Source: a virus (taxonomy: Duplodnaviria > Caudoviricetes). Taken from it: a DNA stretch of 64,000 nucleotides. Location: positions 24,323 to 88,322 of IMG/VR virus record IMGVR_UViG_3300031760_000022. One strand, written 5' to 3'. A program made the translations under genes and the position numbers. The notes beneath the pieces are model-generated. The model was not told where the DNA came from. It worked only from the letters and a program-made list of their open reading frames with translations, and searched no databases. Each line of letters starts with the position of its first letter. Position 1 is the stretch's first letter. This document shows, piece after piece, positions 38,027-57,137 of the stretch.

Positions 38027-38080
38027 AAAATCCCCTTTCTGTGATACTGTGATTATACCACATCAAGGGGATTTTGTCAA
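38027..38080 (-). promoter_or_regulatory. SigmaA promoter within an 11-bp inverted repeat (recD2)
   Basis: TTGACA-17-TATAAT; arms 38027-38037 and 38065-38075; downstream arm overlaps the SD. Confidence 0.85.
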
Positions 38081-38083
38081 GAA

Positions 38084-41000
38084 TTATTCAGTTTCAGCCC
38101 CAATCTTTTGTGATTGGATAATAAGAGTTCCGTCATCATTTACTTTTAATATCTTTCTAACTTTTTCTGTAAAGACTGTGTTTTTATATTTTTTTACCAC
38201 AAATTCAGAATCCCCTCTACGGTATCCACATATCATTAACAGGGTTCCTCTGTCCAACCAAGATTTTTCTAAAACATTCTTTTTACCATCAATAATTTCA
38301 CTTTCTTGTTTCTTTAAGAAAGCATAATGTCCACCATCAAACTTAACAGATACAACATTGTTTTCGGGAGTGAGTAAAGAAATTAAATGATGATTGTCTG
38401 TGCGGCCTATTACTGTTCCACAAATACAGGCTAAATCAAATTGTTTCCATGTTCTACCCCTTGCAGTTTTTTCAACGAATTGCGGTTCTTCTGGAAGTTC
38501 TGAAAAACTACTGATATTATAATAATTATAGTTTACATTTGCTAATTCATGGTTGTTGCTATAATAAGACACAGATTCCATGCTCCAATGATTGGGGTCT
38601 TGATTTGGTAATAATTCATTGAACTTTTTGCGTAAATTGGCTTTATAGTATTGTGTAATAAAATCAGGTGTGTTAATATAATCTTTTATTGCTTCAAAAT
38701 TAGGTTTAAATATTTTTTCTAACCATTTATCTACGACAATAGTTTTATCGTTTTCTTCCCAAAAGTCTACACCAGACTGTCCCAAAGTTATACAATGTTC
38801 TATAAAATATTTGTAGGCTTTGGAATCCAGCCAGTATAGTTTTTTAGATTTGAATTTAGGATGATTCCCATAAAGAAAATCTTTTGAAGTTACATGTTTA
38901 TAAAAATTATAAGCCCCAAAGATTTGTTTGTTATTCATTCGCCCACCAAGGGCAATTTTAATGTTATTTATATTAGCCATAGTAAGCTGTGTAGGTTTGG
39001 GATTAGAAAGGATAAAATATCGTTTCATAATTTTAATTCTATCAGAAGAAAATTCATCAAAACAACCAGCTTTAATAAGTTGAATGATTTTGCTTTGGGT
39101 GATTAAAGAACCTGTAAATGTGTTTTTTTGATAGAAGTCATCAAAAGATTTGTAAGGGCGATTGGAAATGATTTGTTGGGCGATTTGTGGGTTGATTCCA
39201 GCTATCCCACCCAAACCAAAATAAATTAAATTATTACTTTCATCTGGTTCAAAATCAATACCAGCTTTATTGACAGAGGGAGGGGATATTGAAATATTGT
39301 TTTGTTTCATTTTATATATTGCTTTGCTAACTTCTGCGTAATCTGTGCTATTGGTTTTTCCATTTTCTTTTGTTTCGCCATTTGCTTCTACAGATAAACA
39401 AGCACAATTCCAATAAACACTAGGATAAAAATAATTAAGATTAAGTTCTTGTAATGCTATAATAGAATAACTGTATGAATGTAATTGGGAAAAGGAATAC
39501 CCCATACTTGCCGCAAATACAACATTCCATATATAATCAGCGAATATATTTCTTGTACCTTGTCGTTTACAACATTCAAAGAATAATTCTTTGGCTTCTT
39601 CTTGTAGTTTTTTATCTTTCTTAGCAATAGATTTACGCAGTTTATTAGCTTCTTTAAGAGTATAACCAGCAGTATGTTTGTCCATACTAAGACGCATAAC
39701 TTTTTCTTGGCTATCTGCCATTCCATAAGCGTCAGATAAGTAATACCAAAGAATATTTCTTTCACTATCATTAAGTCCAAAAGCGATAGTATCATTTACC
39801 CATTCTTGGTGATTATCTTTATATCGTTTATATCTATCTATGGGTGTTTCATCTGCATTATCTGGCATAAGTCGCAAAAGTGAATTGGCGGCTGATAAGT
39901 CCATAACACTATGAGGATGTGTTGTATTAAGAGTTTTTTGTGATATTGGTGTATCAAATTGAAAACATGAATAAATTGAAGGAAGTATATCCCACATTTT
40001 ATCGTCATCATAGTTAAGTGTATCAGGGTGCAACCATTTATAATAAGTAGCTTTAAGGCTACCTTCCCATGTTATTTTGTCATTGTCTAAAAGATAATCC
40101 ATAGTACGATGTATCTTATCTGCGGCTTCAACTGTAAGCATATCAAATTTAATACAACCAGCTTCTTCAGAATCCCAAAGGTCATAGCAAGTTGTTAAAG
40201 TACCATCGGCAGAGCGCATAGAAGATATATAGTTGGTATATGGTTCATTACAAACAATTACCCCAGCCGCATGAGTTCCCCTATTGGTAATAAGCCCTTC
40301 AATGCCTAAAGCGCATTTAATAAGATTGGGATATTTATTCATTTCGTTTTTCAATGCAGATACAGGTAAAATATCTTTGTTTTTATTTCCATAAATAGCG
40401 TCAGATAAATTAGATACTGTACCACGATTTACAGGGATTAAAGATTTGAAATAAGCGGCTGTATCGTTTGAAATATCTAATCCTTTACAAGCTCTTTCAA
40501 TGGCTGTTTTGGCAGAAATTTTAGAAAAGGTAGCTACATTAAGAACTTTATCTTCGCCAAAATATTCTTTCATTTTATTTACTATTGCTTGTTTTTTACT
40601 TGCTTCTGAATCATTGTCAATATCAGGAAGTTCTACACCTCGTTCGTGGTTCAAATGCCTCCAACTTGGCATATAATCCCCTAAAGGTACGGGGTCAATT
40701 TGTGTTACTTCAAGTAAATAACAAGTAAGGAAACCAGCGGCGCTACCTCTAGCTGGCATAGCCAAACTACCGGCTTCCCATATTAAATCAATTATCTTTG
40801 ACATAGTGGAATAGTAACTTGGCATAGATGTATCAAGTTCTTCAGAGATTATCTTTAATTCTTTCCATTCTTCATTCAATCGAGCAATATAATTTTCCAA
40901 TACTTTATTCTTAACTTTGTTAGTAACAATTTTAGTTTCCAAGGCAATTTCAATTTGACTGAAAAAGTAACGCTCGTGGAGGGGTCTATCCTCAGAGGCG

Positions 41001-42010
41001 TAAAATCCGAAGTTGGGGTATTGGTCGTAATACCTATTGAAGATATGCTTGATGGTAAAATTTGGTAAGTATTGTCTTGGAATTTGAGGTATAATTGGCT
41101 TGTGGAAAATGTCATATCCTTTGATTCTTCGCCCAAGTTCACAACTCCATTCTAACATTTGGCCAATTTGTTTGGTAGTAAAATCGTGTTCAAGATAGCC
41201 GCACAATTCTTTTTCATCCATAAGATAAGCTGTTGCATAGAAATCGTCAACTTCTCTTTCGCCCTCTTGGGAATTAAGATAAACACGATGTATTTCTGCG
41301 TCCTCTTTGCGTAGATAGTGACTGTCTGTTGTGGGAATAATAGGCAATTTGGTATCTTCATGTACAGTCCACATTAAACGATTAACCAAACTTTGGTTTG
41401 TGTCTGTGTTTTTTGAAGGTTGTATTTCAAGATATAGGTTGTCTTTTCCAAAAATATTACTAAGTCTATTTATTTCGTCATAACAATCTTCAGGTTTGCC
41501 ATATCGTAAAATTAAATTATCAATCCTACTACCTAAACAAGCTGTAGATGCAACTACATGACCCTGATTTGGTTTAATTATTTCTTCAAGGTCAGAATAG
41601 TATGTTGGTCTGCGATAGATAAATTGTTTATAAGCTCTGCGCCATGCCCTATCTGAAAGTTCTCTAAGTTGTTTATGACCTTCTGTATCAAGCGCTGTGA
41701 GAATAAAGTGATAGTATGGGGTTTTGCCATTGTTATCACGATTATCTATATCTTCTTGTTCATCCAGTAAATAAATTTCATTGCCCAAAGCAAGAGTGAA
41801 TGGGCGTTCTTTTGTCATGTTGTTGTAATACTTCAGGGCTTGTATATGACTTGATAAAGATTCGTGTTCACTTATAGTTATTCCTTCAAGTCCAAGGTCA
41901 TACGCCCTTTGTATTAAGTCTGGAACACGATTAATTACATCTGGGAAACCACATGAAGCGTTTGAAAAATCTGTGTGATTATGGTTGTTAAAAAATCCCA
42001 TTAATTTCAT
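38084..42010 (-). CDS. dnaE: DNA polymerase III alpha subunit (PHP domain intact)
   Basis: HNHTDFS, TTDSHY, RGSAAG, LPDIDND, GTHAAG, KFDML, YSFSQLH motifs; no intein seen. Confidence 0.95.
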   Translation of the reverse strand: MKLMGFFNNHNHTDFSNASCGFPDVINRVPDLIQRAYDLGLEGITISEHESLSSHIQALKYYNNMTKERPFTLALGNEIYLLDEQEDIDNRDNNGKTPYYHFILTALDTEGHKQLRELSDRAWRRAYKQFIYRRPTYYSDLEEIIKPNQGHVVASTACLGSRIDNLILRYGKPEDCYDEINRLSNIFGKDNLYLEIQPSKNTDTNQSLVNRLMWTVHEDTKLPIIPTTDSHYLRKEDAEIHRVYLNSQEGEREVDDFYATAYLMDEKELCGYLEHDFTTKQIGQMLEWSCELGRRIKGYDIFHKPIIPQIPRQYLPNFTIKHIFNRYYDQYPNFGFYASEDRPLHERYFFSQIEIALETKIVTNKVKNKVLENYIARLNEEWKELKIISEELDTSMPSYYSTMSKIIDLIWEAGSLAMPARGSAAGFLTCYLLEVTQIDPVPLGDYMPSWRHLNHERGVELPDIDNDSEASKKQAIVNKMKEYFGEDKVLNVATFSKISAKTAIERACKGLDISNDTAAYFKSLIPVNRGTVSNLSDAIYGNKNKDILPVSALKNEMNKYPNLIKCALGIEGLITNRGTHAAGVIVCNEPYTNYISSMRSADGTLTTCYDLWDSEEAGCIKFDMLTVEAADKIHRTMDYLLDNDKITWEGSLKATYYKWLHPDTLNYDDDKMWDILPSIYSCFQFDTPISQKTLNTTHPHSVMDLSAANSLLRLMPDNADETPIDRYKRYKDNHQEWVNDTIAFGLNDSERNILWYYLSDAYGMADSQEKVMRLSMDKHTAGYTLKEANKLRKSIAKKDKKLQEEAKELFFECCKRQGTRNIFADYIWNVVFAASMGYSFSQLHSYSYSIIALQELNLNYFYPSVYWNCACLSVEANGETKENGKTNSTDYAEVSKAIYKMKQNNISISPPSVNKAGIDFEPDESNNLIYFGLGGIAGINPQIAQQIISNRPYKSFDDFYQKNTFTGSLITQSKIIQLIKAGCFDEFSSDRIKIMKRYFILSNPKPTQLTMANINNIKIALGGRMNNKQIFGAYNFYKHVTSKDFLYGNHPKFKSKKLYWLDSKAYKYFIEHCITLGQSGVDFWEENDKTIVVDKWLEKIFKPNFEAIKDYINTPDFITQYYKANLRKKFNELLPNQDPNHWSMESVSYYSNNHELANVNYNYYNISSFSELPEEPQFVEKTARGRTWKQFDLACICGTVIGRTDNHHLISLLTPENNVVSVKFDGGHYAFLKKQESEIIDGKKNVLEKSWLDRGTLLMICGYRRGDSEFVVKKYKNTVFTEKVRKILKVNDDGTLIIQSQKIGAETE

Positions 42011-56820: not shown

Positions 56821-57082
56821 TTTCTACCCTATATCCATTCTTTTCTAGTAATTCAATAGCTTCTTTTATCTTATATTCAAGCCTTTCTTTTTCTGCTCGT
56901 TCCCTGATATAATCATAAAAATCACATTTAAGTTCATCCCCATTGCAAGAACATGGTTCACATTCTTTTGTTCCCCAACAAACACCTATTGTTATATCTT
57001 TCCAGTTTATACAATTTCCAGAATAAACATCGTAAAAATATTTTCTTTTATTTTGGGTATGATAACACTTACATTTTTCCAA
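56810..57082 (-). CDS. Hypothetical Cys-rich protein
   Basis: TTG start 57082 with SD inside the promoter repeat arm. Confidence 0.6.
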   Translation of the reverse strand: MEKCKCYHTQNKRKYFYDVYSGNCINWKDITIGVCWGTKECEPCSCNGDELKCDFYDYIRERAEKERLEYKIKEAIELLEKNGYRVENDL

Positions 57083-57089
57083 TAAAAAC

Positions 57090-57137
57090 ACCCCTTTCAT
57101 TTACTATATTATACCACAAATGAAAGGGGTTTGTCAA
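57090..57137 (-). promoter_or_regulatory. SigmaA promoter within a 13-bp inverted repeat
   Basis: TTGACA-18-TATAAT; arms 57090-57102 and 57118-57130. Confidence 0.82.

Follow-up and report, generated by a model that had tools for sequence, protein, structure and literature searches.

Why should a phage bury promoters of consensus quality inside inverted repeats, and do so repeatedly within a single block of genes? The question is raised by an uncultured cattle-gut phage with a genome of 88,322 bp, whose nearest cultured relatives are siphoviruses of Enterocloster and which is not T4-like. The window, i.e., the whole stretch of DNA analysed, spans 64,000 nucleotides of this genome (coordinates below are those of the window unless given as genome positions). 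Seven of the 25 consensus promoters in the whole genome are nested in hairpins, all of them on the minus strand of one co-directional replication-gene block (38–57 kb), where they flank replication and DNA-modification genes. They lie on the strand and at the positions where a sequence-only reading of the window had placed them, and its description of them as near-perfect was apt: all match the −35 and −10 hexamers at 12 of 12 positions and have a TG-extended −10, a combination reached by only these seven between 37.9 and 57.4 kb. Stop codons lie 0–17 nt before the −35 box and start codons 4–25 nt after the stem. The same reading had taken the arrangement for a genome-wide design. The design is indeed recurrent; however, since it involves 7 of 25 promoters, all in one co-directional block, it is module-wide and not genome-wide.

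In all seven elements, the 5′ arm of the repeat fills the −35/−10 spacer and the 3′ arm begins near +1. We scored the 25 promoters by their best inverted repeat with the 5′ arm in the spacer or −10 and the 3′ arm at most 50 nt downstream. The seven sites count 10–16 matched bases, which was reached in 0 of 300 shuffles for each, and the excess thereby withstands the shuffle control that the earlier reading had named itself. Scores of 17 other consensus promoters (5–9) are at chance level, and the tRNA-region promoters were correctly described before as lacking the repeat. One promoter outside the window, at genome position 1107 (minus strand), has 10 of 11 bases matched (p ~0.003). The repeats form a discrete class, with the remaining promoters at chance bar this one partial case. 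The arms vary from site to site while their pairing is kept: complementarity averages 13.0 within an element versus 7.6 for arms paired across elements, exact runs common to elements within one genome reach only 9–12 bp, and a comparison of the stems across elements revealed no common sequence or bulge pattern.

Five of the 3′ arms contain the Shine–Dalgarno sequence (SD) of the next gene, just as the first reading had it. P38080 (38027..38080; −35 at 38075–38080, −10 at 38052–38057) starts 3 nt after the DnaE stop codon and precedes a RecD-like helicase gene (ATG 38022); its arms, at 38055–38075 (5′) and 38027–38047 (3′, with a G-run SD), give 10 matched bases and 19 pairs around an apical loop of 7 nt (−26 kcal/mol). 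P45272 (45217..45272; −35 at 45267–45272, −10 at 45244–45249) lies 2 nt behind the stop codon of a TAGT glycosyltransferase gene and before an ATG at 45215. Its 5′ arm (45247–45269) and SD-containing 3′ arm (45217–45240) have 15 matched bases and form 22 pairs with a loop of 6 (−28.9 kcal/mol). In P48432 (48380..48432; −35 at 48427–48432, −10 at 48404–48409), located 8 nt after the stop codon of a DUF932 gene and followed by an ATG at 48378, C5/G5 arms with the SD in the 3′ arm yield 13 matched bases, 21 pairs, and a loop of 5 (−26.2 kcal/mol). P53185 (53130..53185; −35 at 53180–53185, −10 at 53157–53162) is found 8 nt behind the stop codon of a beta-CASP nuclease gene, with arms of 15–16 bp, a 16-nt loop, 14 matched bases, −21.3 kcal/mol, and a GAAGG-type SD in the 3′ arm ahead of the ATG at 53128. 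P57137 (57088..57137; −35 at 57132–57137, spacer of 18 nt, −10 at 57108–57113) combines 13-bp arms, 13 matched bases, and a loop of 8 (−21.8 kcal/mol) with a G-run SD in the 3′ arm; the upstream stop codon lies 4 nt before the −35 box, and the start is either a TTG at 57082 or an in-frame ATG at 57100.

The other two elements have the SD (AGGAGG) after the hairpin. P42778 (42726..42778; −35 at 42773–42778, −10 at 42750–42755), whose arms had been singled out as wholly different and are unrelated in sequence to those of the other six, has 15 matched bases and folds as RNA into a continuous 19-bp stem capped by a 4-nt loop; next come a U-rich tail, the SD, and a D12-class methyltransferase gene (ATG 42714). 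It is the sole element of the seven that passes a simple terminator scan. In P49456 (49384..49456; −35 at 49451–49456), the −10 box itself (49428–49433) lies inside the 5′ arm. Here, 16 matched bases and ~20 pairs (17 positions in the main stem) enclose a large loop of 22 nt (−19.2 kcal/mol), and the stem is followed by a U6 tail, the SD, and a DUF932 gene (ATG 49370).

A dyad centred on a promoter may suggest control at the DNA level, where a cruciform or a dimeric regulator around the −10 would be switched by supercoiling or a phage protein, and a repeated palindromic motif beside promoters elsewhere in the genome would suit such a regulator. Promoters whose function is tied to an inverted repeat are known from the coliphage N4 virion RNA polymerase (hairpin promoters) and the F plasmid (the single-strand promoter Frpo), and there the polymerase recognises the DNA hairpin as a structure. 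Unlike these, the elements discussed here have ordinary duplex σA boxes with the −10 in the loop, and the observations favour a fold at the RNA level. As RNA, the hairpins have predicted folds of −19 to −29 kcal/mol, and the sense RNA is on average ~5 kcal/mol more stable than the antisense RNA. Among 23 elements compared across several phages, 21 show this bias (Wilcoxon p = 4.5e-6), including six of the seven in the phage itself (P49456 is the exception); control promoters tested for the same sense/antisense bias showed none. About three G-U pairs per element, which would be mismatches in DNA or on the other strand, accompany this advantage. They carry the stems into the TG-extended −10, by means of a GTATCA-type downstream motif that promoters without the repeat lack, and thus leave apical loops of 5–8 nt in five of the seven (16 nt in P53185 and 22 nt in P49456). 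At the DNA level, in contrast, the loops measure 10–27 bp, which is unfavourable for extrusion, and the wholly different arms leave no common operator. The cruciform that the earlier reading had offered as an alternative is disfavoured by the strand asymmetry with its G-U pairs, and DNA-level control as a whole appears extremely improbable.

We consider it reasonably probable that each element is a three-in-one device, namely a terminator or attenuator, a promoter, and a masked ribosome site, which acts only on read-through RNA. It would serve as an expression joint between two co-directional transcription units. When transcription runs in from the unit upstream, the transcribed promoter spacer (5′ arm) would pair with the first leader bases of the next unit (3′ arm), and the resulting long hairpin with its U-rich tail could function as an intrinsic terminator or attenuator. 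In RNA escaping termination, the SD of the next gene would be locked in the stem in five of seven cases; the predicted fold of the long transcript pairs these five within the helix and leaves those of P42778 and P49456 outside. Polymerase at the embedded σA-type promoter would start ~7 nt downstream of the −10, which places +1 in the loop or at the top of the 3′ strand, and would therefore make an RNA without the 5′ arm, in which the ribosome site is free. With the start so predicted from the −10, the gene's own promoter falls within the DNA that specifies the 5′ strand, and RNA begun there would be devoid of that strand. Predicted folding energies are −23.6 to −31 kcal/mol for read-through RNA versus −1.8 to −8.6 kcal/mol for RNA from the predicted +1. 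Such a layout would save a separate terminator, with the sequence-free spacer and the G-rich SD doubling as the two stem strands and the SD-to-start spacer as the U-tract. The idea of an insulator had already been put forward by the sequence-only reading; without its genome-wide scope, it fits every computational test run, whereas the start site, termination, translational masking, and hence the function are what we infer from the sequence. Its core is supported by the strand asymmetry with the G-U pairs, the U-rich tails, the compensating arms in relatives, and the lack of a separate terminator.

The tails are T-rich, as had been remarked: between SD and start codon, T makes up a fraction of ~0.50 at the elements versus 0.21 at promoters without the repeat. 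Tail scores of ~3.3–3.8, near the genome's 95th percentile (two elements were rescored by hand), compare with a background of 2.4 and with 4.7 for the genome's canonical terminators, and scoring below the latter counts against the terminator reading. Some of the T-rich tail is paired with the ACAAA at the end of the −35 region, so the tail could also be selected for stem extension and not as a U-tract. The loops of P53185 and P49456 (16 and 22 nt) are poor ones for intrinsic termination.

Tails weaker than those of canonical terminators and two long loops are what one may expect if the hairpins do not terminate at all and only gate translation, hiding the first gene's ribosome site on read-through RNA in the manner of T4 e, soc, 49, and I-TevI (PMC3014915). 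The position of the SD within the 3′ arm, in five of seven elements here and in most elements of relatives, fits this as well, as do the relatives L044 and L048, where an SD-complementary stretch upstream of the −35 leaves a loop of ~43 nt and cannot be a terminator. Nevertheless, a pure translation gate seems rather unlikely to us. P42778, P49456, and their counterparts in L030 and L057 leave the SD outside, yet they keep the stem and a U-run (a U6 tail in the former two). The 260 nt preceding each of the seven elements, like the rest of the 20-kb block, contain no separate terminator, though such terminators mark every unit boundary elsewhere in the genome. Moreover, the benefit in timing is not evident: upstream and internal promoters are of the same consensus class (σA type), with no later-class internal promoter as in T4, and because all promoters belong to one class, T4-type temporal gating has no obvious counterpart.

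The other co-directional promoters of the genome follow canonical short-loop terminators (genome 1–11 kb; window 60655–60690), one of which (genome 6230–6267) has nearly the same arm sequence as P38080. Like the elements, these combine an A-tract and a C-run/G-run stem with a U-tract (a putative one in the elements), and they likewise end a co-directional unit with a strong promoter next to it. They differ in their loops of 3–5 nt, their stronger tails, and their location 10–120 nt upstream of the −35 of a separate promoter, whereas the composite elements have the −10 inside the hairpin. Read-through RNA could also be severed. Phage T7 has intercistronic sites processed by RNase III, and in five elements near-perfect stems of 18–22 pairs sit exactly between units, so duplexes of 17–22 bp on polycistronic RNA might be cut by the host double-strand RNase and the units separated in this way. 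However, a cut in the stem would hit or adjoin the downstream SD in five of seven elements, no bulge pattern or sequence is common to the stems, and neither the U-rich tails nor the embedded promoter would be accounted for, which makes RNase III processing very improbable.

The proposed composite of terminator, promoter, and masked ribosome site represents no new category of mechanism. Although the sequence-only reading knew of no systematic description, the elements are a variant of two published systems, namely the PeSL cassettes (PMC2839356, PMC4122927) and the hairpins of T4 e, soc, 49, and I-TevI (PMC3014915). PeSLs (promoter-early stem-loop cassettes) were described as recurring motifs that combine a promoter with a terminator, in the T4-like phages RB49/phi1, PST, and nt-1 (Arbiol et al. 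2010, PMC2839356; Comeau et al. 2014, PMC4122927). They span the upstream stop codon, an AT-rich stretch, and a near-consensus σ70-type promoter and close with the SD and ATG; the stem-loop falls between the promoter boxes or overlaps them. Present in many copies, in hyperplastic regions beside ORFans, they have been linked to gene insertion and replacement between relatives (PMC2839356, PMC4122927), and their stem-loops terminate transcription in a lacZ assay (PMC2839356). Recombination between copies (indels, mini-circles) is a further PeSL trait; no circles or recombinants were seen for the present elements. The latter resemble PeSLs in their near-consensus promoter and in a stem-loop within or overlapping it that is read as a terminator or attenuator, in the present case from sequence. 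The PeSL hairpin, however, is a compact G-run/C-run that takes any of five positions with respect to the promoter boxes, with the SD drawn as a separate downstream part. The elements have the −10 within the span of the hairpin, the SD usually serves as the 3′ arm, the spacer between SD and start also provides the tail, and the location is the replication module instead of ORFan-rich regions.

At T4 e, soc, 49, and I-TevI, each gene has a promoter of its own within the DNA that specifies the 5′ strand of the inhibitory helix; the SD or AUG is therefore hidden on long transcripts, whereas promoter-proximal ones are translated (Uzan and Miller 2010, PMC3014915). For gene e, masking reduces lysozyme synthesis ~100-fold (PMC3014915). 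Yet the internal T4 promoter is late (gp55-dependent) and forms a timing gate at a few genes, whereas the present promoters are all of host σA type, occupy every unit boundary of a 20-kb block, come with a U-rich tail, and include two without SD masking. Composite cassettes and promoter-in-hairpin masking, known from T4-like phages of gram-negative hosts, are thus extended to an unrelated gut-phage lineage with Firmicute-type promoters, with an unusually complete overlap of signals, in which the spacer and the SD supply the stem and the SD-to-start spacer the U-tract. Should the function be confirmed, unit-by-unit insulation would be a recurrent solution in large lytic phages, and the elements, at ~55–75 bp, would offer very short natural insulators for synthetic operons.

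Relatives at about 49–94% protein identity keep the design, which is absent in distant relatives. G001 has seven elements and L030 five of six, and single ones occur in L031/33/34/43, L036/39, and L057–L059 (P45272 is conserved in L058). Their arm cores differ, in part by compensating changes: a covariation check of the kind proposed earlier found 14 compensatory and 16 pair-preserving one-sided changes among orthologues. In fixed register 18 pair positions are broken, yet every orthologue folds into a strong hairpin of its own. In G001, the orthologue of P49456 no longer has the repeat, so the hairpin can be dispensed with.

Gene content beside the elements varies between relatives, and homology often breaks at their 3′ edges. 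In the comparison with L030, five of the seven elements have such a break no more than ~15 nt from their edges, usually at the start codon downstream, and related-strain contigs cease matching at 38028, 42777, 48404/48421, 49428, and 53108–53193. P42778 is 93% identical to L030 over 69 nt between non-homologous flanks, with a methyltransferase remnant ending inside its −35, and P48432 is kept in L057 and L058 before a different downstream gene. Such observations would suit short conserved cassettes that are recombination joints first, as proposed for PeSLs, with the hairpin secondary or a signal. We deem this primary role quite improbable, however: mosaic joints in phages usually fall at gene boundaries, and the excess of break points is modest because ~7 of 28 ordinary boundaries also break against L030 (own tally of hits). 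Elements within one genome have only short exact runs in common, and the sense-strand G-U bias and compensating arms would be left unexplained. As an addition to the terminator–promoter–ribosome-site reading, we tentatively propose that this portable cassette, a Firmicute-type PeSL counterpart with its signals in the same nucleotides, may be the standard replication-unit joint in a ruminant-gut phage clade, insulating doubly (read-through RNA would be stopped, and its ribosome site masked) and acting as a preferred seam for module swaps. If function is borne out, the elements would mark the module-exchange seams of the clade.

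The DNA under study stems from a bovine gut metagenome and belongs to an 88,322-bp single-contig virus record (G+C content of 32.5%), of which the window is the final 64 kb. Searching the phage collection at the nucleotide level gave no close relative; by comparison of DnaE proteins, the Enterocloster phages PMBT24 and CB457P come closest among named phages, with an identity of about 50%. The minus-strand block at 36-57 kb codes for a RecD-like helicase, DnaE, a D12 methyltransferase, and RecJ, as well as for a TET-associated glycosyltransferase, DUF932, an aminotransferase, a beta-CASP nuclease, and a DnaB-like helicase. 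Between 37.9 and 57.4 kb, the only promoters that match the consensus at 12 of 12 positions are seven minus-strand ones (P38080, P42778, P45272, P48432, P49456, P53185, and P57137, each named by the position of its -35).

All seven combine a promoter with an inverted repeat as the sequence-only reading had described, and they share one constant layout. The upstream gene ends with its stop codon 0-17 nt ahead of the -35, and the 5' arm begins just after the -35 hexamer, or in its last bases, and occupies the spacer. The TG-extended -10 is found in the loop at six elements and in the arm at 49456. Finally, the 3' arm starts at about the expected transcription start and is followed by a T-rich run and the start codon. 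The repeats spanning the -10 have 10-16 matched bases; in the shuffled control that had been proposed as a check, none of 300 shuffles scored as high for any element, ruling out a chance origin. Of the other consensus promoters (25 in the genome, counting the seven), 17 have 5-9 matched bases, equal to shuffles, and one promoter outside the window has 10 of 11 matched. Because these scores set the seven apart from the other promoters, the design is real and discrete, and it belongs to one module. The idea of a genome-wide design thus holds for the seven-fold recurrence within that module but not for its extent, as the other promoters, with that one exception, are at chance.

Two nearby details concern individual sites. 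The first gene after P57137 may start at TTG 57082 (window 57080-57102, minus strand), which has a G-run Shine-Dalgarno site (SD) at a spacing of 7-8 nt; the alternative in-frame ATG 57100, about 8 nt past the -10, could open a leaderless mRNA. At window 33196-33266 (minus strand), a 12/12 consensus promoter without the TG extension is followed, 20 nt on, by an 8-11-bp hairpin with AGGAGG. Unlike in the seven elements, both arms lie downstream of the promoter here; the region is conserved in the relatives L030-L043 and may lie within coding sequence.

The repeats could act in RNA or in DNA. Predicted folding energies are -23.6 to -31 kcal/mol for read-through RNA and -1.8 to -8.6 kcal/mol for RNA that begins at the predicted start. 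The stems outrun the perfect repeat: via G-U wobbles, the TG(G/A)TAT of the extended -10 pairs with a GTATCA-type motif, which sits a few bases past the -10 and is missing from promoters without the repeat. Owing to this extension, and with G-U pairs counted, five of the seven elements have apical loops of just 5-8 nt. Across 23 elements of this and related phages, with about three G-U pairs each, the sense RNA is more stable than the antisense by a mean of 5 kcal/mol; the advantage is seen in 21 of them (p = 4.5e-6), including six of the seven in this genome, and 15 control promoters have no such bias. The arms, moreover, have no common sequence among elements, and a common operator is therefore unlikely. 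The sequence-only reading had kept control of promoter firing by a DNA cruciform as an alternative, which is disfavored by the G-U pairs, the stability bias toward the sense strand, and the dissimilarity of the arms. Taken together, the predicted energies, G-U extension, strand bias, and unshared arms favor the view that selection acts on the folding of the sense RNA rather than on a cruciform or a dyad bound by protein.

Since a MAFFT alignment of 21 elements places the arms in different registers, the structural evidence consists of per-element folds and orthologue-wise counts rather than a single consensus structure, pair counts, or a covariance model. Against Rfam, three elements resembled hairpin models (miRNA and RsaE) below threshold, and there was nothing else. 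Outside the window (G000:C1:18532-18600, in the full genome), divergent consensus promoters (genome 18483, minus strand; 18615/18736, plus strand) flank a perfect inverted repeat of 29 bp with a spacer of 11 nt, a candidate switch region.

The next question is whether the hairpins terminate, mask, or do both. In favor of termination, every element has a T-rich tail; the SD-to-start spacers of other promoters are A-rich. Stem and U6 are retained at both elements with the SD outside the hairpin (P42778 and P49456), and P42778 is picked up by a simple scan for terminators. Terminator scans turned up no others across the 20-kb block, and the 260 nt preceding each of the seven elements had none either, the automatic upstream scan being strict enough to miss a hairpin before P60652 that was later confirmed by eye. 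The latter is a distinct hairpin that has a short loop and a T-run (window 60655-60690, minus strand), some 10 nt before the -35 of promoter 60652. This promoter has no spanning repeat and is the in-window case of a split layout, terminator then promoter. Elsewhere in the genome, a canonical short-loop terminator closes each unit ahead of the next promoter, and the arms of one of these almost match those of P38080.

Weak points for termination are the loops of 16 and 22 nt at two elements and the tail scores (automatic, with the tail start set by hand for P45272 and P53185), which are below those of canonical terminators. Some of the tail bases pair with those that end the -35 region and so may be stem rather than U-tract. 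In favor of masking, the SD itself forms the 3' arm in five of the seven elements and in most elements of relatives, and the large predicted energy gap between long and short RNA counts in the same direction. We read the elements as leaky terminators, in which the RNA that escapes would also be translationally silenced. The mechanism first proposed, in which read-through RNA is terminated or silenced and RNA started in the loop is translated, thereby appears to be the best-supported reading. Reuse of the SD as a stem may partly be an economy of G+C in an AT-rich genome.

The design recurs among relatives. The IMG/VR contig G001 (helicase 69%, DnaE 49% identical) carries it at seven promoters of its replication block, with arm cores of the CTCC/GGAG type where this genome has C-runs and G-runs; the repeat is lost in its orthologue of P49456. 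DnaE itself is a mosaic (window 38084-42019, minus strand, versus L001:2042-5947): the final ~340 residues are near-identical to G001 and the remainder is strongly diverged, at a whole-protein identity of 49%. L030 (DnaE 81%) has the design at five of six promoters, and isolated examples, whose arms are quite different and rich in G+C, come from L031, L033, L034, and L043 and from L036 and L039, with further cases on metagenome contigs L057-L059. Compared orthologue by orthologue, 48 pair positions have changed: the pair is kept by 14 two-sided and 16 one-sided changes and broken at 18, the latter counted in a fixed register, with each orthologue still folding its own strong hairpin. The design was not seen in PMBT24 (DnaE ~50%) or the more distant loci of L037-L056. 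Upstream of the helicase orthologue of two more distant relatives (L044:13950-14054 and L048:15780-15881), a 10-nt SD-complementary stretch overlaps the -35 instead of the spacer; this would place the entire promoter in a ~43-nt loop, possibly a looser form of the same masking idea.

The elements also coincide with seams. At five of the seven, homology with L030 breaks off no more than about 15 nt from the element's edges, for the most part at the start codon that follows; the P42778 element has 93% identity to L030 over 69 nt, with flanks that are not homologous. Related-strain contigs (four DNA runs, 80% likeness) end their matches at the same places, short-sided joints being unreliable, and L057 and L058 keep the P48432 element ahead of a different gene. 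Just upstream of P42778, a 46-codon ORF (window 42775-42930, minus strand) codes for no more of an N4/N6 DNA methyltransferase than its C-terminal, AdoMet-binding end, and the ORF's TGA stop is the TGA within the -35 hexamer. Its homologue lies directly upstream of DnaE in L032, L034, and L035 and is inverted in L030; the remnant was probably left behind when a cassette replacement introduced the D12 methyltransferase. This conserved 100-nt stretch was also considered as a small RNA and rejected, as it has no fold signal (z = -0.6) and is the gene remnant. Break points at the elements fit module exchange of the PeSL type, but only suggestively, as breaks are frequent at ordinary gene boundaries too.

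The PeSL cassettes known from T4-like phages are repeated composite promoter/terminator motifs whose terminator activity has been measured and which play a part in shuffling; their order is stop codon, AT-rich stretch, -35, -10, SD, and ATG, and a stem-loop overlaps the boxes or lies between them (PMC2839356, PMC4122927). In T4 e, soc, 49, and I-TevI, the ribosome site is hidden in a helix, and the DNA encoding the 5' strand of that helix holds the gene's own late promoter (PMC3014915). With these devices already described, the earlier claim that no systematic description exists was overstated. The present elements merge both ideas, yet differ from them in having the -10 in the loop, the SD as 3' arm with the SD-to-start spacer as tail, and one promoter class throughout, in an unrelated phage with Firmicute-type promoters.

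A different motif occupies the small-gene region outside the window (G000:C1:1600-10900, minus strand), where the interval from each canonical terminator to the following promoter contains 2-5 copies of a palindromic 14-mer of the AGTTTT-NN-AAAACT type. It recurs in G001 (L004:1750-1773 and matching places in L005-L012), about 10-30 nt upstream of the -35, and looks like a candidate operator or activator site through which one regulator could act on a whole promoter class.
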